Shown here in pieces: positions 1,433 through 55,029 of a DNA stretch of 64,000 nucleotides. The notes below the pieces were generated by a model that ran no database searches, was not told the origin of the DNA, and saw only the letters and a list, made by a program, of their open reading frames with translations. The stretch's first letter is position 1. Every line of letters begins with the position of its first letter. The stretch spans positions 3,282,930-3,346,929 of the forward strand of contig OZ245030.1 in the NCBI GenBank assembly GCA_965223985.1. The letters are read 5' to 3'. The translations under genes and the position numbers were made by a program. Origin of the DNA: Candidatus Poribacteria bacterium (GTDB lineage: Bacteria; Poribacteria; WGA-4E; PCPOR2b).

Positions 1433-1828
1433 CATCGGCATCTTTGCAGACGGCAGAACCGTTGGATTTAACGAGAAACATCTGCCCAAACCCTTTTTTT
1501 ACGCCTGCGTTCAGCTTTCTTCTCGCATTAATTACGATCTCAATTCCCGATGGTCCAAGACTACCTAAAATTAATTGAGGAAGGCTAATGCAAAGTCACT
1601 CAACCTGGCGTGGACTTTAAAATCGTCAAGAACGTCTTCTGATTTTTTTGCCAAGCTGCCGAAACGATGGAGATGTTATGCGATTTCCTAATCGCTCCCA
1701 CAGGTCGCCGAACTTGGACTGGTGTTGTGCCATGGGAAAGATTGACCACGCTGTGGGGGGCCATTAAGGGCAAAATCTAATTGTCTGAATTTACGCGGCG
1801 ATGCCTTGGGCTATCTGTACTGGAGGCT

Positions 1829-4992: not shown

Positions 4993-5114
4993 CTAGTTAC
5001 TCGCTTGCTATTCTAAGAGGGAGCATATAGTTTCCAATCTGCTTGGCATGGTTGCAAGAAAGTCGTATTGAGCGACTCAGAGTAGTATCAATTCTATAAG
5101 AGGGCAAGGAAACG

Positions 5115-6794
5115 ATGGAACCCATGCGAGGTGCAAACCTCCTTATTGAAAGTCTTAAACGAGAAGGGGTCGAGTACATTTTTGGTCTTAACGGGGGCGC
5201 GGCGATGCCGATTTTTGATGCTCTCTACGATGCACCCGATATCAAGCTCATCCCCATGCGGCACGAACAAGGCGCAGCGCACGCTGCTGATGGCTATGCG
5301 CGCGCAACAGGTGTCGTGGGTGTTGTGCTTGCCACTTCGGGGCCCGGTGCGACGAACCTTGTCACCGGAATTGCCACCGCTTTTATGGATTCCATTCCAA
5401 TGGTGGCGATCACAGGACAGGTTTTTACCCATTTGATGGGCAACGACGCCTTCCAGGAATGTGATATCATTGGGGTAACGCGTCCCGTCTGCAAGCACAG
5501 TTTCCTAATCAAAACTAGCGACGAGGTTGCGGATATCGTGGCTGAAGCCTTCCACATCGCTAGTACGGGGCGACCGGGCCCTGTTGTTGTTGATTTTGCA
5601 AAGGATGCACAAATAAGTGAGTCCATTTTTTGCTATCCGGAGTCGGTCAACATTCGTGGCTACAAACCCAGCGTCGATGGACATCCGCGCCAAATCGCCA
5701 AAGCTGTTGAACTGATCCACAACGCCAAGCGTCCCATAATCTATGCAGGGGGGGGCGTGGTTCTTTCCGAAGCTGCCAAGGAGTTGCGTGAATTTGCGAT
5801 CAAAACCGGCATTCCAATAACAGTAACGCTCATGGGACTTGGGGCATTTCCCGAAACTCACCCACTTTCAATGGAAATGCCCGGTATGCACGGTTCCTGT
5901 TGTGCAAACTATGCGTTTACGGACTCCGATCTCATTGTTGCAGTGGGTGCGCGGTTCGATGACCGGGTCACAGGAGAGTTGAAAAAATTTGCACCGAAGG
6001 CGAATAAAGTTCATATTGACATTGATCCGTCCTGCATCGGCAAAAATGTCGCGATTGATGTGCCAATTGTCGGTGATGCCAAGCGTGTATTGGCGAAGAT
6101 GAACGAGCTCGTACATCACGTAGACATTGAGCCCTGGAGACGGCAAACTGATGAGTGGAAGGAAAAATATCCCTTCGAGTATCATCAAAGAGGGGATAAG
6201 ATTATGCCGCAGTATGTGATTCAACAAATCTATGAGATCTATCCCGATGCAGTAATCGTAGGAGATGTGGGACAACATCAAATGTGGGCAGCGCAATATT
6301 TCAAATTTACCCAATCACGTCAGTGGTTGAACTCGGGAGGACTGGGAACGATGGGATTCAGTTTGCCTGCAGCAATCGGTGCCCAACTCGGATGTCCCGA
6401 CAAAACGATTGTCAACATCAATGGCGACGGTTCATACATCATGACGATTCAGGAACTCGTCACTGCTGTCACCTTGAAACTTCCGCTCAAAATTTTCATC
6501 ATTAACAATATGTATCTCGGTATGGTGAGGCAGTGGCAAGAACTCTTCCACCAAAAACGGTATTCAGCCGTTGATTACCACGATAATCCCGATTTTGCGC
6601 TGCTTGCTCAAGCGTTTGGTGCAATAGGTCTCCGTGTCGAGCGAATTGAAGATGTTCGACCAGCATTGGAAAAAGCAAAACACATCAATGAGGGACCCGT
6701 TGTTATTGACTTCATTGTTGATGAAGATGAGAATGTGTTCCCAATGGTCCCAGCTGGTGCGGGGCTCGGTGACGTTATACGAGGTTTAGCCTAA
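5115..6794 (+). CDS. ilvB: Acetolactate synthase large subunit
   Basis: 559-aa ORF with the thiamine-diphosphate motif GDGSYIMTIQELVTAV and FAD/ThDP-enzyme architecture. Overlaps the ilvN start. Confidence 0.9.
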   Translation: MEPMRGANLLIESLKREGVEYIFGLNGGAAMPIFDALYDAPDIKLIPMRHEQGAAHAADGYARATGVVGVVLATSGPGATNLVTGIATAFMDSIPMVAITGQVFTHLMGNDAFQECDIIGVTRPVCKHSFLIKTSDEVADIVAEAFHIASTGRPGPVVVDFAKDAQISESIFCYPESVNIRGYKPSVDGHPRQIAKAVELIHNAKRPIIYAGGGVVLSEAAKELREFAIKTGIPITVTLMGLGAFPETHPLSMEMPGMHGSCCANYAFTDSDLIVAVGARFDDRVTGELKKFAPKANKVHIDIDPSCIGKNVAIDVPIVGDAKRVLAKMNELVHHVDIEPWRRQTDEWKEKYPFEYHQRGDKIMPQYVIQQIYEIYPDAVIVGDVGQHQMWAAQYFKFTQSRQWLNSGGLGTMGFSLPAAIGAQLGCPDKTIVNINGDGSYIMTIQELVTAVTLKLPLKIFIINNMYLGMVRQWQELFHQKRYSAVDYHDNPDFALLAQAFGAIGLRVERIEDVRPALEKAKHINEGPVVIDFIVDEDENVFPMVPAGAGLGDVIRGLA

Positions 6795-7285
6795 TGCTTG
6801 AGGAGAGACACATCTTTTCAGTACTCGTTGAAAATCGATTCGGTGTGCTCGCACGAATTGCGGGGTTGTTTAGCGGTCGTGGGTATAACATCGATAGCCT
6901 GAATGTCGCCGAGACGGACCATCCAGAAGTTTCACACATGACAATCGTTACACATGGTGATGCGCAGATTATCGAACAGATATACAAACATCTAAATAAG
7001 CTGATAGATGTGATAAAGGTGACGAATCTCACTACTGAAAATCACGTCGAGCGGGAGTTTGTTTTGATCAAGATGAATGCATCACCCAATCGGCGTGGGG
7101 AGATTCTTCAAATCGTGGAGATTTTCCGCGCTCGCACGGTTGATGTTAGCCCCGCAACATTGACGATTGAGATCACCGGTGACGAAGGTAAACTCAAGGC
7201 TGTGATTGATATGTTGCGTCCATATGGTATACAAGAGTTGGTCCGCACAGGTAAAATCGCAATCATGCGCGGCGCAGCGAAGTAA
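6794..7285 (+). CDS. ilvN: Acetolactate synthase small (regulatory) subunit
   Basis: ACT-domain N-terminus HIFSVLVENRFGVLARIAGLFSGRGYNIDSL. Its start codon overlaps the ilvB stop. Confidence 0.88.
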   Translation: MLEERHIFSVLVENRFGVLARIAGLFSGRGYNIDSLNVAETDHPEVSHMTIVTHGDAQIIEQIYKHLNKLIDVIKVTNLTTENHVEREFVLIKMNASPNRRGEILQIVEIFRARTVDVSPATLTIEITGDEGKLKAVIDMLRPYGIQELVRTGKIAIMRGAAK

Positions 7286-34909: not shown

Positions 34910-36151
34910 GTGAAGCGAGTCGTTATTACCGGCATGGGACTTATCAGCCCTGTTGGCTCCTCCAAATCGGAGTTTTGGAAGTCAATCGCGGCAGGTAAAA
35001 GCGGGATTGACCGGGTGACATACTTTGATCCGACAGATTTTCGAACGCAGGTTGCCGGCGAAGTCAAGGGATTTGCACCCGAGACATTTCTACCGCGTAA
35101 AGCTGTAACACGCCTCCCCTTGTTTATTCAATACGCGCTTGTTGCCTCGATAATAGCACACCAGGATTCTAGGCTAGATCTGGCTCAGATTGACCCCTAT
35201 CGCGCTGGTGTTGGCGTCGGCTCTGGGATTGGCGGACTCAGTGTTATTGAAGAAAACCACCGACTCTTGCTAGAGCGAGGACCCAAGCGAGTAAGCCCTT
35301 TCTTTGTACCTTACGAGATTATAAATATGGCTGCCGGACAGGTCTCAATCCATTTGAAGCTCAAGGGGCCGAACTTTGCGTCAGTTACTGCTTGCGCAAC
35401 CGCCAACAATGCGATTGGAGAATCGTTTCGGATTATTCAACGCGGGGACGCTGATGTGATGTTCACAGGTGGTACCGAAGCGGCGGTTACGCCATTAAGT
35501 TTTGCGGGCTTCTGTTCGATGCGCGCGATGACTACACGTAACGACGAACTACAGCGCGCATGCCGTCCATTTGACAAGAACCGAGATGGATTCGTGATGG
35601 GTGAAGGGGCGGGAATCTTGGTTCTGGAGTCCCTTTCGCACGCACTAAAGCGAAACACCTACATCTATGCAGAGGTCGTCGGTTTTGGAATGAGTTCTGA
35701 CGCGTGCGATATGGTGCATCCTGCGGAGGGTGGAGAAGGGGCTGCCAAGGCGATGCAGTTCGCTTTACAAGATGCCCAAATCGATCCAGATAGTGTTGAC
35801 TATATCAATGCTCATGGTACTTCGACACCGGCAGGTGATGTAGCCGAAACAATCGCCATCAAAACAGTTTTCGGTGCGCATGCGAACCAGCTTGCCGTGA
35901 GTTCGACCAAATCAATGACGGGTCACTTGCTCGGCGCGGCTGGCGCGATTGAACTCATCGCCAGCGTATGTGCCATCGAAAATAGCTATATCCCTCCCAC
36001 GATTAACTATGAAACCCCGGATCCAGATTGCGATCTCGATTATGTCCCAAACCACGGTCGTCCCGCGGATATTGAGGTTGCTATATCTAATGCTTTTGGA
36101 TTTGGAGGGCACAATACATCAATTGCGATCCGAAAATATGTAGGGACATAA
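34910..36151 (+). CDS. fabF: 3-oxoacyl-ACP synthase II
   Basis: KAS I/II thiolase fold. Active-site Cys in [13 protein letters not shown], with HAHGTST and GHLLGAAG motifs. Confidence 0.9.
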
Positions 36152-36518
36152 CACGTATACGAGAATCGTAAAACATTGAGCTTTCGATAAGTTGCGCTTC
36201 ACGATTTTTTCTTCTTGTTCTTTCGCCTTCCTTTTCCAGACTCTCCTTCCTTCTAGGATATACCCATTATTAGCACAAAGCAAATGAGAAATCAGCGGTG
36301 ACAATCCTACTGGGATTATTAAGCGCGCAAGCAATAAAACAAACCATATCCGCTTCATATCAATTCGGATGATATCTTTTTGCCCGCCTGGTTTTCTGAT
36401 TGCCGCGGCATAGCTGTTTGTTCACCATTGCAATTCATCAGTTAATTTGAATTTATAACTGAAAAACTCGCACTATTTATCGTTCGCGTAAGGAACTCCT
36501 AAATCGCAGCTTTTCCGC

Positions 36519-36547
36519 TTGACAGGTAATGGTCAGTGTAATATAAT
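36519..36547 (+). promoter_or_regulatory. Perfect-consensus sigma70-type promoter (TTGACA-17-TATAAT) driving the LamG paralog array
   Basis: ttgaca ggtaatggtcagtgtaa tataat. A GAGGAGG ribosome-binding site precedes the ATG at 36596. Confidence 0.55.
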
Positions 36548-36595
36548 GCCTCAATTAGGCGGTTAAACTTTTCCGGAAGATGTGAGGAGGTTACA

Positions 36596-37342
36596 ATGGT
36601 AAGAGATGGAAACTCTTGGTGCGGCTTCGCTTTGGTACTCTTCACCCTCGCTTCGGTCGCTGTCGCCAGCATAGACGACGGACTCGTCCTCCTTTACGAA
36701 TTTGAAGGCGATGGCGATGTCCTAATTGATTCAAGTGGGAATGGATTCGACGGTAAGCTTGGCACCGCCTCGCGAACGGACGTCGGACTACTCGGGAAAG
36801 GAATCGAATTCACCGCCCCGGATCAGTTCGCTGACGCCGCGGTGGATGAGGGATTGGTTGCCAATGATGCCTTCACCATCAGTGTCTGGGCGAAACCACT
36901 CGCGCTGGATCCAGAAGGCGAAAATCGAGTGACCTACAAGCACGATCAATTCAACCTCGACCTCCAGTTTGGACGAGGTCGACTGGAAGTTCGTTCCGGG
37001 AAGCGCTGGTGGGGCACCGAGGCCAGGGAGCAACCGCTTGTGGAATTAAACAAGTGGCTTCATATGGCTTTGACTTTTTCGACAATATCGGGCGCCGCAA
37101 TGTACCACAACGGAGTGCGTGTTGCTGAGAACCTGGAAGTTTCTTCGCTCGACGAAACAAACGACTATTGGAGGCTCGGAAATCTTGGACATGCGGCGTT
37201 CGTGGGCATCATGGACCAGCACCGGTGGTATCATCGCGCAATGACTGACAGTGAGGTGTTGGAGTTGTTTGAAGAGCCGATCGCTGTCTCGCCCATCGGC
37301 ACCCTGACGACATCCTGGGGCAATATCAAGCGCATGCGCTAA
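36596..37342 (+). CDS. Secreted Laminin_G_3 (LamG / concanavalin-A-like jelly-roll) protein, paralog A
   Basis: Signal peptide, then LVLLYEFEGDGDVLIDSSGNGFDGKL, the canonical Laminin_G_3 opening. Shares the family C-terminal tail AVSPIGTLTTSWGNIK. Confidence 0.7.
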   Translation: MVRDGNSWCGFALVLFTLASVAVASIDDGLVLLYEFEGDGDVLIDSSGNGFDGKLGTASRTDVGLLGKGIEFTAPDQFADAAVDEGLVANDAFTISVWAKPLALDPEGENRVTYKHDQFNLDLQFGRGRLEVRSGKRWWGTEAREQPLVELNKWLHMALTFSTISGAAMYHNGVRVAENLEVSSLDETNDYWRLGNLGHAAFVGIMDQHRWYHRAMTDSEVLELFEEPIAVSPIGTLTTSWGNIKRMR

Positions 37343-37496
37343 ATTGGACGCTCGCGCTAGCGACACGGACTCTGGCCCCGGACGAGAGTTTGACGCTTTG
37401 TCGTGATGAGCTCGCAATTGCAGCCAATTCCTCAATCATAACCTTTACGTCGTACTCTGAATGATTGTGAGCGTCACATTATTTGGAGGGAAGAAC

Positions 37497-38278
37497 AATG
37501 AGTCACTTCCGAATTCAATTCATCGTTTGTATGGTGGTCGCACTGGCGCTTTGGATGGTCGGGTTTGCGCTTGCAGCAATAGATCTGGAAAAGGGGGCTT
37601 GTGCTCTACTACCCATTCGAGGGCAGTGGTGCTAATCAGATTACGGACGTGAGCGGAGAAAACAATCACGGCGAGTTCAGGGGTGCCGTGTGAACAACCG
37701 AAGGCCAGTCCGGGAAGGCGCTCGAATTCCCGACGCATGTCGACGGGGCACGCATCCCCGAGTCGCCCAGCTTGCTGGTGACCAACCACGGCGAAGGTTT
37801 CACGGTGTCCTTTTGGGTCTATCCGATCGAATGGAACACTGCCGGCAACGGTGAAAATCGTGCGGTGTATCGGCACATGCAGTACAATGTGGACTTATTC
37901 CGCGGAGGCGGGCGATTCCACATCCAAAAGAACGGGACCTGGCCTGGAATCAATGATGCACCAGAGATGCCCCTAGAGACGTGGGTTCTGGTCACCGCAA
38001 CCTGGTCGCTGGACGACGGTTCCACGCTCTACCGTGACGGACTAGAAATTGCGAGCAACCCAGACATGCGCGGTGAGATTGACGAGAACAGCGAGTGGAC
38101 CGCTCTCGGGTACTTTGCTCCCCACGAGGGGTACGTAGGTAGAATGGATGAGCTGCGTATCTACAGTCGCGCGATCGATGTGGACGAAGTGTTTGAATTG
38201 TTTGAGACGGCGGGTGTGTCCGTCTCGCCCGAAGACTCGCTTGCCACGCTGTGGGGCATTGTCAAGATGGGGCTCTAA
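37497..38278 (+). pseudogene. LamG paralog B', disrupted by one frameshift and one in-frame TGA (intact paralog at 46900-47694)
   Basis: The signal-peptide frame (MSHFRIQFIVCMVVALALW...) shifts before LVLYYPFEGSG at ~37600. TGA at ~37690 (GAV*TTEG) versus CGA in the paralog (GAVRTKDG). ~80% nucleotide identity to 47270-47694. Confidence 0.6.
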
Positions 38279-38405
38279 AAACAGCCAACAAAATGGCGCC
38301 CCGTGCAATGTGGAGGCTGCAAAAATAGATGTGTCACGAAGGCTGCTCTTGAGCGCAGCGAAGCGTCCAGAATAACTATCCGTCATTCTAAGACGGGAGA
38401 AAGTC

Positions 38406-39188
38406 ATGAAACGACAGAAACGCTGTGCTGTACTGATGACACTTCTTGCGCTCACTATCCACGCCGGTGTTTTCGCCGCCGACATCTTAGATGGACTGAT
38501 TGGTTACTGGCCATTTGACGAAGGAGAGGGTGATGCGGCTCACGATCTGGTTGGAGGACATGATGGATCAATCAAACGCGCCGACTGGACGGACAGAGCG
38601 AAGTCCGGGAGGTGGGCGCTGCAATTCTCGCCTGAAGACGATACGAAGGTTGTGATTCCAGATGCCGAGGAACTCGATAATCTTCCGGATGGCCATACGG
38701 TGACGAACTGGATCTGGCCGGTGAGCCGGGGCGCGATGATGGATAAGTCCGGCGGCAACCACTTACGAATACAATGGTTCTTCTTTGACGATGGACGCCT
38801 CCATTGGGGTAGCGGGCCCAATTTTGCCTTTAGCGCCAAACCCGTGTCGTTCCGAAAGTGGTCCCACGTCGCATGGTCACATTCGGCCGATTTAAGCGTC
38901 GTATATGTCAACGGTGAAAAGTTTCACGAAGAGCTGAATATGGGGGCACCTATCCCCACCGGGGAGCCGATAATCTTCGGAAGAAGTGGGATTATAGCGG
39001 ACGGAAATCCCAGGCAACAGAACTTCGAGGGGATCATGGACGACTTCGGCCTTTGGAATCGCCCCTTATCTGACAAGGAAGTCAAGGAGGTCTTCGAGAG
39101 GGGGCTTGGGAACATTCTTGCCGTCTCCCCCCACGGCAAAATGACAACGACGTGGGCGGCGGTGAAGGCGGAAATTAACCATCCCTAA
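38406..39188 (+). CDS. Secreted Laminin_G_3 protein, paralog C
   Basis: Signal peptide, LIGYWPFDEGEGDAAHDLVGGHDG, and C-terminal AVSPHGKMTTTWAAVKA. Confidence 0.7.
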   Translation: MKRQKRCAVLMTLLALTIHAGVFAADILDGLIGYWPFDEGEGDAAHDLVGGHDGSIKRADWTDRAKSGRWALQFSPEDDTKVVIPDAEELDNLPDGHTVTNWIWPVSRGAMMDKSGGNHLRIQWFFFDDGRLHWGSGPNFAFSAKPVSFRKWSHVAWSHSADLSVVYVNGEKFHEELNMGAPIPTGEPIIFGRSGIIADGNPRQQNFEGIMDDFGLWNRPLSDKEVKEVFERGLGNILAVSPHGKMTTTWAAVKAEINHP

Positions 39189-39265
39189 GTGGAGCAAAGG
39201 TCCCAAAAGTGGATGCTTCACTTCGTCCAGGGTAACAATCCTTCATTCTGAGAAAGGAGAAAGTT

Positions 39266-40036
39266 ATGAAACGACGAGGACTCTGTGCTGCGTTGATTGC
39301 CCTTCTGGCGCTCGCTATTCAACCCCTCGTTTTCGCCGACGTCTTAGTCGGGCTGATCGGCTACTGGCCGTTTGACGAAGGCGAAGGAGAGGTGACCGTT
39401 GATGAGGTTGGTGGACATGATGGAGCGATCGAACGTGCTACTTGGACAGATCAGGCGATTGAGGGGAAAGCGCTGAAATTCGTGCCGCAAGACGATACAA
39501 AGGTACGCGTTGAAGACGCCAAGGACCTCGATGAACTGCCGGACGGATTAACGGTTGCGAACTGGATAAGGCCGTTGAGCCGAGGCGGGATGATGGATAA
39601 GTCCGGTCTGGCAGATAGAATCCAGTGGTTCCTCATGGAAGATGGACGTCTCCATTGGGGAGCTGGTCCCAACTTCACCTTTACCGATGGCCCCGTAGTC
39701 AAGTTCGGAGAGTGGTCCCACGTCGCATGGTCACACAATCCCGTCGACGAAAGCGTTGCGTATGTCAACGGTGAGGAAGTTCACAACCAGAAGGGATTAG
39801 GGAAGGTTCTCCCCACCGGCGAGCCGATGTACTTCGGAGACATGGGAGTCCTGCCGGGCAACAACCCCAAGCAACAGAATTTCGAGGGTATCATTGACGA
39901 GATTGGCTTTTGGAATCGCCCCTTATCTGCCAAAGAAGTCAAGGAGGTGTTTGACAGGGGGCTCAATCAAATTCTCGCCGTCTCTGCCCACGGTAAATTA
40001 GCAATGACGTGGGCAGCGGTGAAGGCGAGGATTTAG
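39266..40036 (+). CDS. Secreted Laminin_G_3 protein, paralog D
   Basis: ~65% aa identity to paralog C. The same 5' UTR (cattctgagaaaggagaaagtTATGAAACGA) is present. Confidence 0.7.
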   Translation: MKRRGLCAALIALLALAIQPLVFADVLVGLIGYWPFDEGEGEVTVDEVGGHDGAIERATWTDQAIEGKALKFVPQDDTKVRVEDAKDLDELPDGLTVANWIRPLSRGGMMDKSGLADRIQWFLMEDGRLHWGAGPNFTFTDGPVVKFGEWSHVAWSHNPVDESVAYVNGEEVHNQKGLGKVLPTGEPMYFGDMGVLPGNNPKQQNFEGIIDEIGFWNRPLSAKEVKEVFDRGLNQILAVSAHGKLAMTWAAVKARI

Positions 40037-40430
40037 AATGGGCAGATTTGCAAAGACGCCGTCTTGTTACGCATTCCCTCGGATTGGAGGGCTCGCGGAG
40101 AGTGTAGAAGAGGTTTTAAGACATGCGGATCTGAGCCAAATTTGGCTGAAATGGCTTGAAATTGTTAAGTCCAGCCATTTCTTCCTCCCCCTTTTGCCCC
40201 TCAAAGTTTGAGAGTTGGAGAGTAAGGGGGTAATTATTCACCGCAATAGCTAGCATTGCGATGTAAACAATCGCTGGTTTGTTTGGTTATGGCTGGGGGT
40301 GCCCAATCATAACTTCAGTTGTAGTACTTCCAATGCTATCACTGGATAACCTTAAATAAGTGTGAAGGAAACGGTTGTTTCGCACATAACTTACGATACC
40401 ATTTGGTTTCGTTTTGAGAAAGGAAAAATC

Positions 40431-41130
40431 ATGCAACAACAGAAACGCTGCGCTACGTTGATGGTCTTTTGACGAAGGACAAGGAGACGTGGCTCGCGAT
40501 GAGATTGGCGGGCATGATGGTGTGGTTGAACGTGCTACCTGGACAACTGATGCAAAAGGTGGTGGGTACGCACTAGAATTCAGTCCTGCGGACGATACGA
40601 AAGTGACTGTCGCTCATTCCAACGACTTCTTCGGCGCCGACGGTTCGTTCACAGTATCGAACTGGGCGAAACCGCTGAGCCGAGGTGCAATGATGGATAA
40701 ATCCGATAAAGTCAACCGAATTCAGTGGTATATCCTTGAGGAGGATCCAGGCTGGCGGTTCCACTGGGGCGGCGGATCTGGGTTTACTTTTTCGCCCTTT
40801 GCGGCCAATTGGGGAGAATGGCATCACTGCGCATGGGTGCACACTGCCTCGGCAAGTACCGCGTACCTTGATGGCGTAGCAATTCACACAGAGCCAGATA
40901 TGGGACCGATTATCCTCACTACGGAGCCGATGTACTTTGGAGACATGGGGATTTTAGCGGCGGGCAATCCCAAGCAACAGAACTTTGAGGGTGTGTTGGA
41001 CGAATTCCACATTTGGAATCGAGCCTTATCTGCTGAGGAGATTATGCAATTCCTTCAGGGGGGAGGTACTGCCGTCTCTCCGAAAGGGAAATTGGCTATT
41101 ACGTGGGCGGACTTGAAGGCTTCAGATTAA
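40431..41130 (+). pseudogene. LamG paralog E' with an internal deletion that removes the signal-peptide/N-terminal segment and creates a premature TGA
   Basis: ATGCAACAACAGAAACGCTGCGCTACGTTGATGGTCTTTTGA: the MQQQKRCATLMV start is fused directly to FDEGQGD, missing ~24 codons relative to paralog C. The downstream ORF (40489..41130) retains the LamG body and the family tail AVSPKGKLAITWADLKA. Confidence 0.55.
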
Positions 41131-41506
41131 CCACCACCCGCTCCACGTGTTGAATGCGATCCATGGAGCCTGTGATGCACCTCCTATATCCGCTTGAAGC
41201 TGGATGCGTCGCGGGCTCCATTTCCCGCATGACTTCACCTTAAACAGTCATAAATGGCCGGTTTGTCATTCTGAACAACAGCGGAGAATTGCATTGCCCC
41301 GAGATCGTTGCGCAGTTTGGAATCCCGATTATACCTCAGCTCAGGATGACATCTGAAAATATCATTCGCTCGTTCAGTCCTCAGACGCATTGACTACGGT
41401 TCCGAAGCGCCCGCTGAAAAACGGTGACATTTGAAGCCCCGGCATTGCACCTCACCAATCCTTTTGCTCGGAATTCTGCTTATTCCAATCAACGCCTGCC
41501 TCCTGT

Positions 41507-43405
41507 ATGCAGAAACGAACCATCCACATTAAACCCATCTGTGCGGTTGCTGTTGGTGCCCTGCTTATTCCGGTGAACCAGTATTGGTTGATGCGCGCCG
41601 AAACCATTTACCCGGGCACATTTTCGACGCTCTTGACCATCTTTTACAACGTGACATTCACGTTGTTTGTGCTTGTTGCGGCGAACACTGCACTTCGGCG
41701 CGTTGCCCCGCGTACCGCGTTTGGCCCGAGCGAACTCTTGATTGTCTTCGTCATGCTTACCGTCGCCACGGGAATCTTCGGGCACGATCTAATGCTCGTG
41801 CTCGTCCAGTCGCTCGCCGGCACCGGCTGGTACGCAACACCAGAAAATGACTGGGCAAACCTATTTCTCCGCCACCTGCCCTCTTGGCTTCGAATTGACG
41901 ATGAGGCTGCCCAGGACTATTTTCTCGGAGAGTCCGCCCTTTACTATGAGGCGCACATACGTGCATGGTACCGGCCCGTGCTTTACTGGAGCACCTTTAT
42001 TGTAGTCCTGCTTTTCGTTACCCTCTGCCTTACCGCCGTTGTTCGGCGGCAGTGGACAGAGCACGAGAAGTTGGCTTACCCCATCATCCAGTTGCCGATC
42101 GCGCTCGCAACGGGTAACTCTATTTTGAGGAATCGAATGCTGTGGCTGGGCTTCACCATGGCAGGGACACTCGATCTGATGAACGGCTTGCACGCGTACA
42201 TCCCGGTCATCCCGGTGTTTACACCTAGCATGGACATCGGCACCTACATGACGGAGAATCCGTGGACCGCTGCCCGACCACTAGTGGCATGGATTTATCC
42301 TTTCGTCGTGGGATTAGGGTACTTCCTCCCCGTGAATCTGTCGCTGTCGGCTTGGTTTTTCTACCTAATGTGGAAGGCAGAGTTGGTGTTCCGCGCGGCA
42401 ATCGGTGTTTGGGAAACACCTGGACCGTTTCGGAGCTACCAGACAGCCGGCTCGTGGATGATTTTGACGGCAATTGTTGCGTGGACAGGACGTCGGCACT
42501 TGAGGGACGTGATTCGGACAGCCATTCGCGGCAAACTGGGCACCGGGGATGAGGGGGAGCCGATGCGGTACCGTAGCGCCGTTATCGGTCTGGCAGGCGG
42601 TGTGGCGCTACTCGTGGCAATGCTTGTGATGGCAGGGTTGTCAATATGGGTTGGCGCGCTGTTCATTCTGATTTATCTGGCATACATGATCGCGATTTGC
42701 CGCATTCGAGCGGAGGCGGGTCCGCCATCCCACGGCGGCGAGTTCATGGGCCCCGAACAGGTTCTGCTCAACATCTTTGGTCCACGGCGTATAGGACCAA
42801 AGAATGTTGCACTGTTTAGTGGGATGTACTGGATGAGTCGTGCCTATCGCAGCGTTCCTGTCGGTCATCAGCTTGAGGGTTTCAAGACAGCCCAGGTTGC
42901 CGGCGGGTCAGGTCGGGTGTTCCTGACGGCAATGGTCATCGCCTCGGTCGTCGGGACGTTCAGTGGCTTTTGGATCTTCCTTGAAGCGATGTATCGGTAT
43001 GGAGCGGCGAACGTCCAGCATCAAATAGGGATGGAGCCCTTTCAGCGACTCCAGCCGTGGATCTTAACTCCAGGGCATCGGAACTATGGGCTCCTGCGGG
43101 AGATGGGGATTGGTGCAGTCGTCACGGGAATCCTGATGGTTTTCCATCATCGATATGTTGGATTTCCCTTTCACCCAGTGGGTTATGCTATCGCAGGCGG
43201 ATCAGTCATGGAGAAGCGAGCGTGGTTTTCCATTCTGCTCGCATGGGCTATAAAGACGACCATCCTGACGGTAGGCGGACCGGGACTGTATCGCCGTTTC
43301 GTGCCATTCTTCGCCGGTCTCATCCTGGGACAGCACATTGTGGGCGGCTTGTGGACGATTGTCGGCATCGCGCAAGGAGAGGTCGTCTACCGCTTTTTCC
43401 GTTGA
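41507..43405 (+). CDS. Large polytopic membrane protein (>=12 predicted transmembrane helices), unknown family
   Basis: 632 aa. Alternating hydrophobic helices with W/Y-rich loops. No recognisable catalytic motif. Confidence 0.5.
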   Translation: MQKRTIHIKPICAVAVGALLIPVNQYWLMRAETIYPGTFSTLLTIFYNVTFTLFVLVAANTALRRVAPRTAFGPSELLIVFVMLTVATGIFGHDLMLVLVQSLAGTGWYATPENDWANLFLRHLPSWLRIDDEAAQDYFLGESALYYEAHIRAWYRPVLYWSTFIVVLLFVTLCLTAVVRRQWTEHEKLAYPIIQLPIALATGNSILRNRMLWLGFTMAGTLDLMNGLHAYIPVIPVFTPSMDIGTYMTENPWTAARPLVAWIYPFVVGLGYFLPVNLSLSAWFFYLMWKAELVFRAAIGVWETPGPFRSYQTAGSWMILTAIVAWTGRRHLRDVIRTAIRGKLGTGDEGEPMRYRSAVIGLAGGVALLVAMLVMAGLSIWVGALFILIYLAYMIAICRIRAEAGPPSHGGEFMGPEQVLLNIFGPRRIGPKNVALFSGMYWMSRAYRSVPVGHQLEGFKTAQVAGGSGRVFLTAMVIASVVGTFSGFWIFLEAMYRYGAANVQHQIGMEPFQRLQPWILTPGHRNYGLLREMGIGAVVTGILMVFHHRYVGFPFHPVGYAIAGGSVMEKRAWFSILLAWAIKTTILTVGGPGLYRRFVPFFAGLILGQHIVGGLWTIVGIAQGEVVYRFFR

Positions 43406-43552
43406 GAGACTCCATAAGCCAACCGGCTCACAACTGACAAACTCGCATGGAAAGGAAAGTGCAAAACGTGAAACGAAACTGAGTTTCTGCGAAAAATCTC
43501 GGCTTCTGTTGCACCATTCCTAAACATAATCGGGGAAATTTGTGAATCACCC

Positions 43553-45682
43553 ATGTCCGGAGGAAGAATCATGTTTATCAGCCCGAAAGAGTTAAAACCC
43601 ATCAGCACCGTTGTGGATGGTTACGAAGTCCATGCTTTCGGTCACATTGACGTTTTCTCGGTCAGTCCAACGTACTTTCCGGACCTGTTCATTCAGGTCG
43701 GCAACGCTCATCCCGTGAAAAAGATACACCCAAAAAAATCGTGGGAAATCGTAGATCACGTCATTGGGATGACACCGAGGCGTTTGCCCAGCGCGGCTAT
43801 TCGTGGCGTCCAGCTCTACCATAACACATATTTCATTGATGGCGACTGGGACACGGTTGGGTTTGCCGGCACGTATCAACACGGTCCAGATACGCAATCG
43901 CAAGCGTGGCTGCGTATTCAACTTCCGATAACCTCCCGCATTCAGTCGGTAAAGCTTGTGTCCGCGAAGGGCGCTCTCGCCTTTCCGGTTCACTTCGAAA
44001 TTCGAGTTTGTCAGTGGCACAAATTCTCTCATACACGCCAGTGGAAGACGGTGTACCAGGCCGAAGATTCCACGGAATACAAACCCGGAATGTATGACTG
44101 GCCTCCCAGACCACGATTCAACTACGACACAATCAAGCCCGATACTCCGATTCGCATTGACCTTACCTGGAGTGAAGGTGGACACGGCGAAAAGGTCGAA
44201 GTGCGAGAATGCACCTTTGAGCCAACAGAAGCCCGCGAGGTGTGGATACTCTCGCCTCAAGACTTCCTAAGCGCCGAAGTCGAGGTAATCGACGAATCCG
44301 GTGAAAATATCGCTCTGTTATCGAGGGGAGCCACTGCGTACGTTTCCCGCCCGATTCAGATGTTCTGGGTTGACGCGAGGACGCATGCGGACATGTGGTC
44401 GCTGAACTACGATATGGGGGTGAAGTGGGTGAAAGTGAATTTCTGGCTGGAGCCGCTCAACTGGCAATTCGTTGAGCGAGAGAAAGGCCGCTATGAAATT
44501 GACCCGCTTACAGATGCCGCCATCACCGAAGCAGTAGAATGCGGTGTCAACATCGTGATGTGTCTGGGCGGTTTATACGGCTTGCCCAATCATCCGGACT
44601 ACCCAGTGGAAGTTGAGCGCATTGAGGGATTCTGCAACTACGTCCGATTCATGGTCGAGCATTTTAAGAATCGGGTGCAATACTACGAGATTTTCAACGA
44701 GTACTATGAGCAGCACACGTATTCTCCTGACTCCGGTCCGTATGAGCTAGCCGCAGCCGAGTATGCTAAGTACGCGGTGCCTGCTGCAAAGGCCATTAAA
44801 GCGGTCTATCCCGAGGCGAAGGTGGTTCTTGTGGGCCCAGATCCCCTCGCATGGGACTTTATCGAGGCAAGTCTCAATGCCGGTTTGGCCGGCTTGGTGG
44901 ACGTTATCTCATGGCATCAATATCAGTGGACTATGCCGCCAGAGGTATTGGACCGCCCGAACTACCCGTGGGTGGGGCCCGAAGTGAAAACCTACGCTGA
45001 TGCTGTCCGGTATGTCCAGAGAGCCGCTAACGCCTACGGCGTTCACGAGTTTCACAACAATGAAGCCGGCGCCTACGCCTTTTATTGGGGTGAAGAAAGA
45101 CCTTCCACGCTTGTCTCGGCGAAGTATCTGGCTCGAACGATGGTATTACACGCGACTCTGAAAGTGCCTACTTTCTGGAATCGCACAGATTCTTACTTCC
45201 TACAGAGCGGAGCGTCTTCAGCGGGTGACACTTCTTTGTCGGAAGGTGCGTCTGAAGGGTCGCTGCAGCCGGCCTTTTCCTACTACGTGTGCCGAACACT
45301 GTGTGCGTTGATGGACAGTGTGAAGCCAATGGTCCTTGAGATCGCGCTCGTGGCTGACCGGGAAGTAGATGTGGAGAAGCACGCCTTCCAGTGTCCCGAT
45401 GGAGATCTTCTTCTTGCCATGTGGATACTAGATGTCGGCGCCGACGACTACCCGGCTGTTGAAGCAGCGCTCTCCGTTGCCGCAACCGCTGCTGAGGTCG
45501 TCGGCTACGAGTTGCTCAACGGACAGGAGCAGCCGCTCGACTTCACTCATGCAGGGGGAGCGCTGGAAATAAACGGGCTGTTAATCCGGGACTATCCTTT
45601 ATTGATTCGCTTGAGCAAACACAAAAACTCTAATAGTCAACAAGATGATAGCTCCGTCTCCCCACTTAATCTTTCCTCTTAG
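43553..45682 (+). CDS. Putative clan GH-A (TIM-barrel) glycoside hydrolase with an N-terminal domain of unknown function
   Basis: YYEIFNEYY (NEP-like acid/base motif of GH5/GH39-type enzymes). A candidate nucleophile lies in FHNNEAGAY. No signal peptide recognised. Confidence 0.4.
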   Translation: MSGGRIMFISPKELKPISTVVDGYEVHAFGHIDVFSVSPTYFPDLFIQVGNAHPVKKIHPKKSWEIVDHVIGMTPRRLPSAAIRGVQLYHNTYFIDGDWDTVGFAGTYQHGPDTQSQAWLRIQLPITSRIQSVKLVSAKGALAFPVHFEIRVCQWHKFSHTRQWKTVYQAEDSTEYKPGMYDWPPRPRFNYDTIKPDTPIRIDLTWSEGGHGEKVEVRECTFEPTEAREVWILSPQDFLSAEVEVIDESGENIALLSRGATAYVSRPIQMFWVDARTHADMWSLNYDMGVKWVKVNFWLEPLNWQFVEREKGRYEIDPLTDAAITEAVECGVNIVMCLGGLYGLPNHPDYPVEVERIEGFCNYVRFMVEHFKNRVQYYEIFNEYYEQHTYSPDSGPYELAAAEYAKYAVPAAKAIKAVYPEAKVVLVGPDPLAWDFIEASLNAGLAGLVDVISWHQYQWTMPPEVLDRPNYPWVGPEVKTYADAVRYVQRAANAYGVHEFHNNEAGAYAFYWGEERPSTLVSAKYLARTMVLHATLKVPTFWNRTDSYFLQSGASSAGDTSLSEGASEGSLQPAFSYYVCRTLCALMDSVKPMVLEIALVADREVDVEKHAFQCPDGDLLLAMWILDVGADDYPAVEAALSVAATAAEVVGYELLNGQEQPLDFTHAGGALEINGLLIRDYPLLIRLSKHKNSNSQQDDSSVSPLNLSS

Positions 45683-45751
45683 GGGGGCAGACACAGAAGG
45701 GAGATGGATAAGGCCACCGTATTCTGAGCATACTAAAGGAGGTACTGTCAG

Positions 45752-46603
45752 ATGATTATTGATATGCGGCTACGGCCGCCTTGGAAGAGCATTCCGACTC
45801 TGGCCGTTTACAATTTCCCGCCGGGCGGTTATGCGCCAGAGATCAAAGGGGCAAAGCGGCCACGCTCGGCCACAGAACGCTCGATGGACCTACTCTTGCA
45901 GGAGATGGATGAAGCAGAAATTCGGTGGGGTGTCGTCATGGGTCGGCTGGCGGATGAGCAGTACGGCACGATTGAAAACGAGGATATTTATGAACTGGTG
46001 GAGGCATACCAGAACCGTTTCGTGGGATTCCCCGCGGTGGATAGTGTGCGTCCACGAGAGTCCCTTGACGAGCTACACCGGGTCGCCAAGCATCCTCAGA
46101 TGCCGGGGGTTCACTTGGAACCCATGGGAGCAGCGCCAGCTCGCCGAGCAGATGACGGTGTGTATTATCCTCTCTATGCAGAGGCAGAACGCCTGGAGGT
46201 CATTGTGGCAATTTCGGGCGGGGGTCTCATGGGCCCCGACTTTACCTATGTTGACCCCATCGCCATTCAACGTGTCGCCAGGGACTTCCCCGCACTCACG
46301 CTGATCATGTGTCATGGGGGATGGCCTTGGGTCCATCAGGCAATTGCGGTTGCGTACTCTTGCCCCAACGTATATGTGTCGCCGGATATGTATATGATTT
46401 ATCCTGAGATTCCCGGCGGGCTGGAGTATGTCCGCGCGGCGAACCTGTTGCTAGAAGATCGCATCGTGTTTGGAACAGCGTATCCGACACGACCGCTCCC
46501 AGAAAGTGTGGAGGACTTCCATCGACTTCCCTTCCGAGACGACCAGGTAAAGCACAAAGTGCTGTATGCTACTGCGGCACGCCTTCTTGGACTGGAGGAT
46601 TAG
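45752..46603 (+). CDS. Amidohydrolase-2 family metal-dependent hydrolase (TIM barrel)
   Basis: Conserved His/Asp pattern (HLEPMG... MCHGGWPW... D at the C-terminus) typical of PF04909. Confidence 0.55.
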   Translation: MIIDMRLRPPWKSIPTLAVYNFPPGGYAPEIKGAKRPRSATERSMDLLLQEMDEAEIRWGVVMGRLADEQYGTIENEDIYELVEAYQNRFVGFPAVDSVRPRESLDELHRVAKHPQMPGVHLEPMGAAPARRADDGVYYPLYAEAERLEVIVAISGGGLMGPDFTYVDPIAIQRVARDFPALTLIMCHGGWPWVHQAIAVAYSCPNVYVSPDMYMIYPEIPGGLEYVRAANLLLEDRIVFGTAYPTRPLPESVEDFHRLPFRDDQVKHKVLYATAARLLGLED

Positions 46604-46627
46604 TTGTGTGTAAAATAAATCCTGACA

Positions 46628-46700
46628 CATTGTCATTCTGAGCCGCATGCGAAGAATCTCGCCCTTGAGATGCTTCGCTACACTCGGCATGACATGGTAA
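46628..46700. repeat. Nested palindromic element TGTCATTCTGAGCCGCATGCGAAGAATCTCGCCCTTGAGATGCTTCGC...CATGACA
   Basis: Imperfect 12-bp stem (gcgaagaatctc/gagatgcttcgc) nested within TGTCAT...ATGACA. The 'tgtcattctga' motif recurs at 41268 and in the 5' UTRs of LamG paralogs C and D. Confidence 0.4.
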
Positions 46701-46899
46701 GTGAGCAGCCCCGATAGATTGGGATTCAAAGCAACTTTCTCGCTTCAAGCGGGCTGGTAGCTCCGGGATTCTCGCGTAGCGGGCTCGCCTCACTTTACTA
46801 TCGATCCTATGCAACAACGTCCACAAGAGTCAATCCGGAAAATTCTTCCGAATGGTTCAAACCTTCGGAGGGTTTATCCGCTTTCCTGGAGGAAAAAAC

Positions 46900-47694
46900 A
46901 TGCAAGGGAAAGGCATGAATCACCGGCAATCTACATTCGCTCTCTACGTGCTGATTGCGCTGGCATATGGGCCCGGCGGGACTGCGCTGACAGCAGCCGA
47001 TTTTGAAATGGGGCTTGTCCTCTACTACCCATTCGAGGGCAGTGGCGAGGACCAGATTACAGATAGGAGCGGAAAACAAAACCACGGCGTCTTCAAGGGC
47101 GCAGTGCGAACAAAGGATGGTAAATTCGGGAAAGCGCTCGAATTTGCCACGCATCACGACGGGGCGGAAATTCCCGATTCGCCCAGCTTACTCGTTGAAA
47201 ACAAGGGCGACGGCTTTACGGTGTCCTTCTGGGTCTACCCGATTGAATGGAACGTCGGCGGCAACGCTGAAAACAGAGCAGTGTACCGGCACATGCAATA
47301 TAATGTCGATTTCTTCCGTGGCGGGGGGCGGTTCCACGTCCAAAAGAACAACGCCTGGCCCGGAATCAATGGGGCGCCGGCGATGCCCTTGGAGGAGTGG
47401 GTTCTGGTCAGCGCAACCTGGTCGCCGAAAAAGGGCTTCACGCTCTACCGTGACGGACTTGAGATTGCAGCCCACCCCGGTATCCGCGGAGAGATTGATG
47501 AGAACCGGCAGTGGACCGCTCTCGGGTTCTTTTCGCCTCACGAGGCGTACGTAGGGAGAATGGATGACTTACGCATCTACAACCGTCTGCTCAATGAGGA
47601 CGAAGTGGAGGAACTGTTTGAATATGAACCACTTCAGGCTGTTTCGCCCGAAGGGTCGCTTGCCACGATATGGGGAACTGTCAAGAAAAATTGA
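46900..47694 (+). CDS. Secreted Laminin_G_3 protein, paralog B (intact counterpart of pseudogene 37497-38278)
   Basis: GGAGG ribosome-binding site, ATG at 46900, signal peptide, LVLYYPFEGSGEDQITDRSGKQNHG, and C-terminal AVSPEGSLATIWGTVKKN. Confidence 0.7.
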   Translation: MQGKGMNHRQSTFALYVLIALAYGPGGTALTAADFEMGLVLYYPFEGSGEDQITDRSGKQNHGVFKGAVRTKDGKFGKALEFATHHDGAEIPDSPSLLVENKGDGFTVSFWVYPIEWNVGGNAENRAVYRHMQYNVDFFRGGGRFHVQKNNAWPGINGAPAMPLEEWVLVSATWSPKKGFTLYRDGLEIAAHPGIRGEIDENRQWTALGFFSPHEAYVGRMDDLRIYNRLLNEDEVEELFEYEPLQAVSPEGSLATIWGTVKKN

Positions 47695-48575
47695 AGTTGA
47701 CAATTGAAGCCTGCCCTCATGAACACGGTCATCTTGGTATTCCGATTGCTGCCGGCGCGATTGGATGGCAAAGAAATCGAGGACAGGAGCAGAGGACGGC
47801 TGGTAATGGCGCAGTCCAGACAGAGAAGGGGAAATTCACGCGAATGAGCAGGCTCTGGGCTTCGAAATTCCTATGGCGCAACTGCTGTTGGGTTTTCGGT
47901 GCCTAAGAATAACATGTAAATCTTTCCTTAAGAGGAGGTCCTCGCTGTCGAAGCCGCATTGTGTTTATGCTATTGTTTCAACACCCTTGAAGGATGCAGC
48001 CGTGTTCCGCGTCGTCAATTAGCAGTCTGGTGGTCTGAACAGATTAACGGATGTTTTTTCCTTTGTACACAATATGTTTGGTAATCTTGTTTTAGAGCCT
48101 TTAAGGGTGTGTTGCTTGTTACGGGTCAATCTCATTGCGAACACCTTTTACTTCGGTGGGGATTTTGTTTTCGAGTCTTCCCTCACGTAAGATTGTCCTT
48201 CAGCATCACGGCGATGTATTTTATCGCTACGCCGCATATTACATTTGAATGGGGAGTTAAATTCGACATTCGAAGCTAATTCCATCTGCCCTGGGTGACG
48301 TTGACCGTATGGAGTGCACAGCCCGTGATGAGCTTATTGCCGCAGCGGAGCAACTCAGCGCTATCGCCGAAAGCATTCAACGTCCGGCGGTTCAATTGAC
48401 AGTTCTCGCATCTATAGGAAGCCTTGAGACAGGGGAGTTGAAGCTCACTGCCAAGAACATCCCGGATATCGGTAAGGGGCATGGATTGAAGTTTCAAATG
48501 AAACCTGTGGCTTAGGCACCTATCCATTCCCTCTCCTAAAGTCTACACGTAATTGAAGAAGCCAGCCGGGACAAC

Positions 48576-48842
48576 ATGATGATGGTGATTGATTATGGTC
48601 AGTTTTACCCGGGCGGAGCATCGACGCCTGATGACGTGGAAAAGTTGGACAGTTCAATGATTTACTTTGCCCATTTCCGCGATGACATTGCACACAAGGA
48701 AGGCGCGGTATGGAATGAAGTTGAACTCAGAGACTTCCTTCCGGGAAACGGTGAGATCCCAATTCAGGAACAGGTGGACGCGGTGCGCTCGACGGGGTTT
48801 AATGGAATCCGATCATATGAACTTCTGAGTCTCAGTCACTAG
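48576..48842 (+). pseudogene. C-terminal remnant of a xylose-isomerase-like TIM-barrel (sugar phosphate isomerase/epimerase) gene
   Basis: GNGEIPIQEQVDAVRSTGFNGIRSYELLS resembles the C-terminal GDGxIDF...GYDGxISxE block of that family. It has no N-terminal two-thirds. Confidence 0.3.
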
Positions 48843-48934
48843 GCATAGAATCCCTGAGAGTTAACTCGGGAATAGAAGCGTCGCTTGGAATTTCGTACTT
48901 CTTGATAGGGGTGACTCCCCATACTCAATTAATT

Positions 48935-49723: not shown

Positions 49724-49735
49724 ACATAAAAACTC

Positions 49736-49852
49736 CCGGCAACGACCTACTTTCCCACGAGGTTGCCCTCGCAGTATCATCAGCGCTGGAGGACTTAACT
49801 GCCGTGTTCGGAATGAGTACGGGTGTTTCCCCTCCGCTATTGCCACCGAAAG
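49736..49852 (-). rRNA. rrf: 5S rRNA
   Basis: The reverse complement reads ...GGTGGCAATAGCGGAGGGGAAACACCCGTACTCATTCCGAACACGGCAGTTAAGTCCTCCAGCGCTGATGATACTGCGAGGG... Confidence 0.85.
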
Positions 49853-49956
49853 AAATTCAAATATCTCTTATAAAGAAAATCTCTACTGCAAAACTATTGC
49901 TGTAATTAACAATTTGACAACTTTATAGATTTGAAGATTTACCCCAATACGAAGAT

Positions 49957-52974
<3,018 letters not shown>

Positions 52975-53043
52975 ACAGTTATTGAAGTAAATCATCAAAT
53001 CTATACAATTGTCAAAGATCGCCGTCTGCAAAAGTTGCAGACA

Positions 53044-53119
53044 AATGGAGATGAGCGGAGTCGAACCGCTGGCCTTCTACGTGCAAAGCAGATGCTCTCC
53101 CAAACTGAGCTACACCCCC
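53044..53119 (-). tRNA. tRNA-Ala (UGC) in the 16S-23S spacer
   Basis: Reverse complement: GGGGGTGTAGCTCAGTTTGGGAGAGCATCTGCTTTGCACGTAGAAGGCCAGCGGTTCGACTCCGCTCATCTCCA. The G3:U70 identity pair is present. Confidence 0.85.
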
Positions 53120-53131
53120 ACACGGGTATGG

Positions 53132-53205
53132 TGGGCTTATCTGGACTCGAACCAGAGACCTCGCGCTTATCAGGCGCGCGCTCTAACCGCCTGAGCTATA
53201 AGCCC
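53132..53205 (-). tRNA. tRNA-Ile (GAU) in the 16S-23S spacer, with CCA encoded
   Basis: Reverse complement: GGGCTTATAGCTCAGGCGGTTAGAGCGCGCGCCTGATAAGCGCGAGGTCTCTGGTTCGAGTCCAGATAAGCCCA(CCA). Confidence 0.85.
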
Positions 53206-53307
53206 CAACAACAAGCGCTGCAAGAAAGCTAAATAGAATATCAGACATAACCAATCAAACGAGCTAAACATACCACATGTTAATCAACACGTGACAGTCT
53301 ATATAGG

Positions 53308-54869
<1,562 letters not shown>

Positions 54870-55029
54870 CCAATAAAAAATTTTTGCTAATTCATTGAAT
54901 TAGCAATGACGTAACTAGCTTTAACAAGCTCTAAACTCGATGTTTGTAAAAACATCTGGGCATGTCACAATAAACTATTTAGCTTTCAAAGAGCGCATGT
55001 TATCTACCCTGCCATAGCAGAGTGACGAA

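Follow-up and report, generated by a model that had tools for sequence, protein, structure and literature searches.

A strain-variable array of tagged LamG genes around a transporter and glycosidase cassette in Candidatus Poribacteria

Organization of the locus

We have analyzed a stretch of 64,000 nucleotides (nt) from the genome of a Candidatus Poribacteria bacterium (GenBank assembly GCA_965223985.1, contig OZ245030.1, positions 3,282,930 to 3,346,929 of the forward strand, referred to here as the window), and specifically a locus of nine genes in which small LamG domain proteins are encoded next to a predicted transporter and two putative enzymes. Poribacteria are uncultured and their physiology is read from genomes. 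All the genes of the locus are on the + strand: five LamG genes (A to E) are located head-to-tail, followed by a cassette of three genes (a polytopic membrane protein, a glycoside hydrolase (GH)-like protein and an amidohydrolase) and by a sixth LamG gene, F (Table 1). The fabD-fabG-acpP-fabF genes and folK flank the locus on either side, with an rRNA operon beyond folK. The G+C content of positions 36000–48000 is 0.51–0.545, versus 0.46–0.48 in the flanking fab genes and on the folK side, a difference compatible with the insertion of the locus between fabF and folK or with a different codon usage. The best-named homologues of the membrane protein come from Candidatus Poribacteria, and a cluster of LamG proteins carrying the same C-terminal tail as those of the window (P0017) is annotated as 'LamG domain-containing protein [Candidatus Poribacteria bacterium]'.

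Table 1. Genes and candidate regulatory sites of the LamG locus. Positions are those of the window; aa, amino acids; ORF, open reading frame.
Feature	Position	Strand	Description and evidence
Promoter-like site	36519..36547	+	sigma-70-type, TTGACA-17 nt-TATAAT; 12/12 consensus positions
LamG A	36596..37342	+	intact, 248 aa; Sec-type signal peptide, Laminin_G_3, tail AVSPIGTLTTSWGNIK; PF13385 E 5.8e-18
LamG B	37498..38278	+	pseudogene, F-like twin; three-frame translation, aligned with the intact L001 allele and F
LamG C	38406..39188	+	intact, 260 aa; C/D/E subfamily; PF13385 E 6.4e-16
LamG D	39266..40036	+	intact in the window, 256 aa; PF13385 E 5.1e-17
LamG E	40431..41130	+	decayed; residual ORF from GTG 40489; PF13385 E 5.2e-22 on the residual ORF
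Motif TTGTCATTCTGA-N-AGAAT, copy 1	41263..41289	+	~220 nt upstream of the transporter gene
DUF6785/DUF6784 protein	41507..43405	+	632-aa polytopic membrane protein; Pfam E 8.5e-143 and 7.8e-28
GH39-like protein	43553..45682	+	709 aa; discoidin/CBM32-like + GH39-like clan GH-A (beta/alpha)8; family profile matches
Amidohydrolase	45752..46603	+	283 aa; Amidohydro_2 (PF04909) metal-dependent hydrolase; Pfam E 2.1e-35
Motif TTGTCATTCTGA-N-AGAAT, copy 2	46630..46657	+	~245 nt upstream of LamG F; promoter-like, 9/12
LamG F	46900..47694	+	intact, 264 aa; twin of B; tail AVSPEGSLATIWGTVK; PF13385 E 1.3e-18

The six LamG genes match Laminin_G_3 (PF13385) with E values of 6e-16 to 5e-22 (59–79 bits, against a cut-off of 27.6). 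They form two subfamilies, A/B/F and C/D/E, with about 30% identity between the groups. In the first one, B and F share 69% of their amino acids and 75% of their nucleotides (with a maximum of 78% over a stretch of 300 nt), and the amino acid identity of A to either of them is about 38%; in the second, the amino acid identity is 65% for C and D, and about 50% when E is compared with each of these. The ribosome binding site regions upstream of C, D and E are 81–86% identical over 21 nt. An AlphaFold2 (AF2) model of LamG F (predicted local distance difference test, pLDDT, 73.8) has a confident all-beta sandwich core, a jelly roll for which Foldseek found lectin-like domains at E values of 1e-10 to 1e-8, among them the carbohydrate-binding domain 4 of the GH43 enzyme AbnA, a trans-sialidase lectin domain and a neurotoxin Hc-N domain. 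When a LamG profile was compared with 1.84 billion representative sequences, 343,094 matches were found, mostly giant multi-LamG proteins, which are uninformative on the tailed family of the locus.

The promoter-like site is located 49 nt upstream of LamG A and is the only one of its kind within positions 36100–48900. A second candidate signal, the motif TTGTCATTCTGA-N-AGAAT, precedes both the transporter gene and LamG F. Searched as CATTCTGA-N(6-16)-AGAAT it occurs twice in the 64 kb, versus 0.06 occurrences expected, and both copies are kept in two conspecific genomes (L001 and L093). It is possibly an internal promoter or an operator.

A preliminary description of this stretch had already listed six LamG genes, two of them decayed. 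The ORF listing and the translations agree with its coordinates and with the decay of B and E, and the LamG/concanavalin-like identity is borne out by Pfam for all six genes, by the AF2 model and by Foldseek. The same is true of the perfect-consensus promoter ahead of the locus, of the conserved C-terminal tail, which is present in 6/6 LamG genes, and of the composition of the cassette, for which Pfam confirms the three genes (the hits of the GH-like one being weak). Other details had to be corrected. Gene F is the intact twin of the pseudogene B, as had been described, at a nucleotide identity below the ~80% given there; a Sec signal peptide, attributed to all six, is found in five of them and has been deleted from E in the window; and the 5' untranslated region said to be shared by three genes is similar in C, D and E without being identical.

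Turnover of the LamG array within one species

We have compared the array of the window with those of L001 and L093, the three being genomes of the same species with 95–99% nucleotide identity. In the window A, C, D and F are intact, while B and E are dead. With respect to the intact 259-aa allele of L001, gene B has suffered the insertion of one A near position 37593 (a +1 frameshift) and a CGA to TGA change that generates a stop near 37692. Gene E has lost, with respect to the intact 258-aa allele of L093, 77 nt located between ATGGT microhomologies, an out-of-frame deletion that removes the core of the signal peptide. The situation is different in L001 (98–99% identity to the window), where A and B are intact, D has been deleted and a single C/E chimera (P0004) is found, with its junction within the conserved RGAMMDKS block. 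In L093 (95–96% identity) A, C and E are intact, E with its full signal peptide, while B has an early stop and a frameshift has shortened D to 143 aa. A further chimera, of the E/D type, is found in a fourth sequence (P0006). The orthologues of gene A in L001 and L093 are 96–98% identical to it. The intact paralogs are under purifying selection (dN/dS 0.26–0.35, with C versus D at 0.35).

Single-base indels might be errors of long-read sequencing, an explanation that is unlikely for the nonsense changes, the 77-nt deletion and the chimeras. Since different lesions and paralog chimeras are found in three conspecific genomes, the birth-and-death evolution proposed in the preliminary description is real and recent, and is directly visible here as genome-specific lesions and chimeras. 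The turnover of the array is rapid, and involves tandem duplication and unequal crossing-over among its paralogs as well as point mutations and small deletions. It provides a natural case of very recent gene birth and death, in which unequal crossing-over at a conserved block, deletion at a microhomology, frameshift and nonsense mutation can be seen side by side. The genome-specific lesions suggest shifting selection on what the cells bind.

The transporter and enzyme cassette

The 632-aa membrane protein is assigned by Pfam to DUF6785 and DUF6784 only, without PF03169, and a profile of 42 homologues found no PDB sequence match at E values up to 10. The AF2 model of the protein (predicted template modelling score 0.91) has the fold of the OPT/Yellow Stripe family, and by this modelled fold we identify it as an OPT/Yellow Stripe-like secondary transporter. 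The resemblance does not extend to the sequence: compared with the OPT/Yellow Stripe-like proteins (TC 2.A.67; barley HvYS1, PDB 7WSR/7WST, PMC9691689), the identity is 11–14% and there is no sequence-level match to PF03169 or 7WSR. The assignment gives a fold to a family annotated so far only as of unknown function.

The genomic context is also different. An alignment of DUF6785 was compared with one genome per species, and 80 loci (L013–L092) were collected, nearly all from Poribacteria and with several per genome. The same-strand neighbours of the Poribacteria genes are mostly catabolic enzymes, such as PhyH (8), GFO_IDH_MocA (7) and MR_MLE (4), together with enolase-superfamily, ASPIC/FG-GAP and FlgD_ig-domain genes and, in individual loci, GH32 and sulfatase genes. 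This is a context of carbohydrate and organic acid catabolism, unlike the peptide or metal-chelate uptake of the OPT/Yellow Stripe-like family. The DUF6785/6784 family has undergone a strong expansion in Poribacteria, with over 576 confirmed stretches in species-representative genomes, and a few DUF6785 copies are found in Chthonomonadales. In L001 (11148–13047) the transporter gene is split into ORFs of 348 and 280 aa, either by a frameshift or by an assembly error.

The 709-aa protein encoded next has no signal peptide. By itself its sequence falls below every Pfam GH threshold, with a sub-threshold match to GH44, weak matches to discoidin and an E value of about 0.04 to GH10. A profile of 30 homologues is more informative, and matches PDB 5jvk_A (2.7e-16), GH39 beta-xylosidases (2.7e-10), PslG (7.7e-9) and a GH53 enzyme; some of the homologues reach Pfam PF01229 or PF00150 by themselves. 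Homologues of the protein are found in members of the Terriglobia, Verrucomicrobia, Armatimonadetes and Planctomycetes. Residues 100–225 give profile matches to CBM32/discoidin chains. The residues E379, N382, E383 and E504 are invariant in the 30 homologues, and the N-E motif aligns with that of 5jvk_A. The protein is therefore similar to the GH39 enzymes XynB, PslG and PDB 5JVK in its predicted (beta/alpha)8 domain, its NE acid/base motif and its conserved nucleophile Glu, and differs from them by the N-terminal discoidin/CBM32-like domain, in place of which a LamG domain is found in L011 (see below). Judging from these alignments, it is a predicted cytoplasmic discoidin plus GH39-like enzyme of clan GH-A that keeps both catalytic Glu residues.

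The third gene codes for an amidohydrolase whose Amidohydro_2 match (123.4 bits, gathering threshold 26.4) covers residues 3–281 of 283. Its closest solved relative is 3irs_A, the uncharacterised protein BB4693 (E 7.9e-53). By analogy with other members of PF04909 it may act as a sugar lactonase.

A C-terminal tail shared by different exported proteins

The LamG proteins end in a segment of about 16 residues with the consensus V-S-P-x-G-K/S-L-x-T-x-W-G/A-x-I/V-K. It is the only segment kept across LamG proteins that are just 28–30% identical overall, with V, W and K invariant. We have searched for it as a regular expression in the Poribacteria loci (809,018 ORF residues, ~1.75 Mb) and found 51 C-terminal matches and none internal. 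In 519 kb of other metagenomic DNA, collected around homologues of the GH-like protein (see below), there was no match. An N-terminal hydrophobic h-region typical of signal peptides was found in 46 of 48 tail-bearing ORFs, versus 40% of the control ORFs. The tail had been described as a feature of the LamG family, which is not the case: 18 of the 51 proteins are Kelch, CBM9-like, discoidin or unassigned 250–268-aa proteins.

Among them, secreted Kelch beta-propellers of 356–365 aa with the tail are encoded three or four in tandem in other Poribacteria (L042 3149–8806, L090 3838–7262 and L091 1719–5069), upstream of a PhyH gene and DUF6785 genes. The tail is found also on a CBM9-like protein (L083 9153–9995), on an F5/8 type C (discoidin) protein (L079 21138–21845) and on proteins of 250–268 aa without Pfam match (L042 12516–13268; L046 9828–11438). 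A 37-aa ORF located at the other end of the window (1667–1780, + strand) ends in VVPWERLTTLWGAIKGKI followed by the stop codon, a good match to the tail. There is no LamG or other domain upstream, and an ornithine/aspartate carbamoyltransferase gene (1781–2740) begins immediately after the ORF, which may be what is left of a tail-bearing gene that has decayed, or a chance match.

Two simple explanations of the tail have been rejected. It is not the last beta-strand of the LamG sandwich, because it is unpacked in the AF2 model of LamG F (residues 245–264 lie outside the sandwich with pLDDT below 50) and because Kelch, CBM9 and discoidin proteins end in it too. Neither is it kept as a DNA or RNA element, since nucleotide identity over the tail is only 65–85%, with synonymous differences, while the peptide is kept across families. 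No Pfam or NCBIfam model matched the tails or the whole proteins over this segment at E values up to 10. With its strict C-terminal location, the varied domains that precede it and the export signals, the tail looks like a domain-independent tag that is specific to this lineage and marks exported binding-type proteins of Poribacteria. Its properties are in this sense those of LPXTG, PEP-CTERM, GlyGly-CTERM and the C-terminal domain (CTD) of the type IX secretion system (T9SS), all of them domain-independent, strictly C-terminal and lineage-restricted, and found on exported proteins with a signal peptide. Unlike these signals, the tail is only ~16 residues long, far short of the 70–100 aa of a T9SS CTD, and has neither a transmembrane helix nor a basic cluster, and the comparison with the four of them gave no membership in any, no hydrophobic helix being present. 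The TIGR04183-like (T9SS-type) CTDs described in Poribacteria (Kamke et al., 2014; PMC3909097) are a larger domain, different from this tail.

The tail would most likely be a tag for retention or docking in the envelope. A short tag on many exported proteins of carbohydrate-binding type is the signature that a dedicated localisation or docking system, so far undescribed, would leave, and might serve to delimit the set of surface or periplasmic binding proteins of the phylum.

Recurrence in other genomes

LamG genes on both sides of the cassette are conserved in the three strains. L001 was discarded as independent evidence of synteny, being 98–99% identical to the window. Neither could L002 and L003 be taken as orthologous loci of a distant relative: their contig contains a copy of the window transporter at least 90% identical, so they are paralogous loci of a close relative.

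Arrays of LamG genes on the same strand and directly upstream of DUF6785 genes were found in L003, L011, L016, L017 and L047, whose transporters belong to a clade 56% identical to that of the window. In L011 a gene located at 5003–7135 codes for a 710-aa protein with a signal peptide in which a LamG domain of the A/F type is fused to a GH39-like domain (E 8e-39 to the GH-like protein of the window); downstream of it come three tailed LamG genes and then the DUF6785 gene. L017 retains only a 184-aa remnant of the N-terminus of such a fusion. The linkage of LamG and GH was seen twice.

Over the 80 DUF6785 loci, a tail-bearing gene was found within 10 kb in 20 and within 1 kb in 7, when about 1.6 loci would be expected to have one so close from the density in the far flanks. 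The density itself goes from 4.3 tail genes per 100 kb within 1 kb of the DUF6785 gene to 2.3 per 100 kb at 5–10 kb. The adjacency of tailed LamG genes and transporters is real but partial, with an enrichment of about 3- to 4-fold. The amidohydrolase is not a recurrent partner, and the complete four-part arrangement is species-specific. We have also compared an alignment of the GH-like protein with metagenome contigs, which gave another 80 loci (the 519 kb mentioned above). In L009 the gene of the GH-like homologue is preceded by an ORF of 652 aa that was considered as a possible transporter; it is not a DUF6785 protein.

A functional module of LamG array, membrane protein, GH and amidohydrolase had been anticipated in the preliminary description. 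What recurs in other Poribacteria is the location of LamG arrays upstream of DUF6785 genes; the full module outside the species, and the amidohydrolase as part of it, do not. The coupling of a glycan-binding family to a glycan-processing cassette is plausible in view of the transporter fold and of the intact GH39-like residues. Nothing specific was found in favour of the suggested role in host adhesion. The arrangement had been presented as not being a described system, and we have found no description of it in the literature: searches on Poribacteria with LamG, laminin G or concanavalin and on DUF6785 gave nothing relevant, and nothing was found on the fold of DUF6785/6784, on the pairing of LamG genes and transporters in Poribacteria or on the shared C-terminal tag.

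Interpretation of the locus

The reading that we favour, although in our judgement it is an even call, is a lineage-specific locus for the capture, uptake and hydrolysis of glycans with tagged binding proteins. The small exported LamG proteins, with their lectin fold and presumably expressed from the strong promoter, would have an extracytoplasmic glycan or glycoconjugate as ligand, and the C-terminal tag would retain or dock them in the envelope. The OPT-fold transporter would then import fragments of the substrate, the direction of transport being presumably inward, and the predicted cytoplasmic discoidin plus GH39-like protein, as a retaining glycosidase, would cleave them. The amidohydrolase might process one of the products, for example as a sugar lactonase. 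We infer that the genes of the locus are co-regulated.

A locus of this kind would resemble the polysaccharide utilization loci (PUL) of Bacteroidota (SusC/SusD, SusE/F), where small exported proteins with carbohydrate-binding folds are also encoded together with a transporter and a glycoside hydrolase, and where the binding genes vary among strains. It differs from them in that the binding proteins of the window are not lipoproteins and have a C-terminal tag instead, and in that its transporter has the OPT fold and would be located in the inner membrane, with a hydrolase predicted as cytoplasmic. Pfam found no SusC-like TonB-dependent transporter and no SusD among the nine proteins of the locus. 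Another possible analogy is with the TRAP DctPQM and TTT TctABC systems (the expanded Bug family of Bordetella), in which many exported binding-type paralogs may be encoded beside or far from a few transporter genes; unlike DctP and TctC, binding proteins of the window type have lectin or propeller folds. LamG arrays and clusters for glycan use are ordinary. What appears to be new here is the fold of DUF6785/6784, the pairing of LamG genes and transporters in Poribacteria and, above all, the shared tag.

Several facts weigh against a glycan uptake locus. To our knowledge, the substrates of the OPT family (TC 2.A.67) are peptides and metal chelates, not sugars, and the confidence of the LamG F model is moderate. 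The complete combination of LamG, membrane protein, GH and amidohydrolase genes was found only in the conspecific genomes (L001 and L093). No tail-bearing gene is found within 10 kb in 60 of the 80 DUF6785 loci, and LamG pairs also occur far from any transporter (L002). Tail genes are common throughout the DNA of Poribacteria (~2–3 per 100 kb), and chance therefore explains some of the adjacency. In the 80 loci of GH-like homologues, which belong to other lineages, there was no homologue of DUF6785, of the tailed LamG proteins or of the amidohydrolase nearby, and the same was true of a Verrucomicrobia contig and of two such homologues of other lineages that were inspected individually (L008 and L009).

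The juxtaposition could also be fortuitous. The tailed LamG proteins would then be a very large envelope or surface family of Poribacteria involved in adhesion, cell-surface architecture or attachment to particles or hosts, and the cassette a separate catabolic unit, small in size, that was inserted between fabF and folK. The frequency of the tail genes (51 in ~1.75 Mb, and still 2.3 per 100 kb at 5–10 kb from DUF6785), their absence from three quarters of the transporter loci, the LamG pairs without transporter and a GH family that elsewhere is unlinked to LamG or DUF6785 all favour this possibility, as does the fact that the transporter gene and LamG F are each preceded by their own promoter-like motif. 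Chance alone does not account so easily for the 3- to 4-fold excess of tail genes right beside DUF6785 genes, for the same-strand arrays directly upstream of them in several species and in two clades of paralogous transporters, for the LamG-GH39-like fusion found within such a locus (L011), or for LamG genes that flank the cassette on both sides and are kept so in three strains. We consider a fortuitous arrangement possible, and somewhat unlikely.

A more specific proposal would be that the tail is a docking peptide for DUF6785/6784, with LamG, Kelch, CBM9 and discoidin proteins as interchangeable binding proteins of an OPT-fold transporter, by analogy with the binding-protein-dependent systems mentioned above. 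The same tag on unrelated exported domains of binding type, the tailed Kelch or LamG arrays upstream of DUF6785 genes (L042, L090, L091, L016, L017 and L011) and a tail that is unpacked from the LamG core in the model, as a linear interaction motif would be, are all consistent with it; so is the fact that tail genes are far more numerous than transporter genes in the sampled DNA. On the other hand, the enrichment is limited to about 2- to 4-fold, the majority of tail genes and of transporters have no partner, the Chthonomonadales DUF6785 loci (L072 and L077) have no tail gene, and we know of no OPT transporter that depends on a binding protein. We find such docking rather improbable. The same low expectation applies to its broadest version, in which the tail would be a new sorting or docking tag across Poribacteria that physically couples about a hundred exported lectin-fold proteins per genome to DUF6785/6784 transporters. 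If the tag did link the binding proteins to the transporter, it would represent a new architecture for bacterial nutrient uptake, and a new class of binding-protein-dependent secondary transporter for glycans.

The least probable of the explanations, in our opinion very hard to sustain, is that the LamG paralogs build a surface fibre or fimbria, in which they would polymerise by using the C-terminal strand as donor strand. Several paralogs in tandem and a tail that is unpacked in the monomer model would fit, and there are matches over the LamG part (best E 1.9e-16) to the NCBIfam model of TafC (NF052521), the fimbrial subunit of the haloarchaeal Tat-fimbria (PMC11821415). These matches are weak, and membership in TafC was rejected: their scores of 20–60 bits are far from the cut-off of 410, and the region matched (profile positions ~146–362) is just the generic LamG part. 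Besides, the export signal is of the Sec type and not of the Tat type, the Kelch propellers and CBM9 domains that also carry the tail would be unlikely as pilins, and Pfam detected no usher, chaperone or sortase-like gene in the locus.

Other features of the window

Just downstream of folK there is a complete rRNA operon (16S, tRNA-Ile, tRNA-Ala, 23S and 5S) on the − strand (49734–54876). Near the other end of the window, a T-box leader was detected at 4710–4966 (+ strand; 95.7 bits, gathering score 93). It precedes a gene for an acetolactate-synthase-type thiamine-diphosphate enzyme (5115–6794), followed by ORFs of 163 and 333 aa, and the leader and the genes downstream constitute a predicted T-box-regulated operon in a Poribacteria genome.

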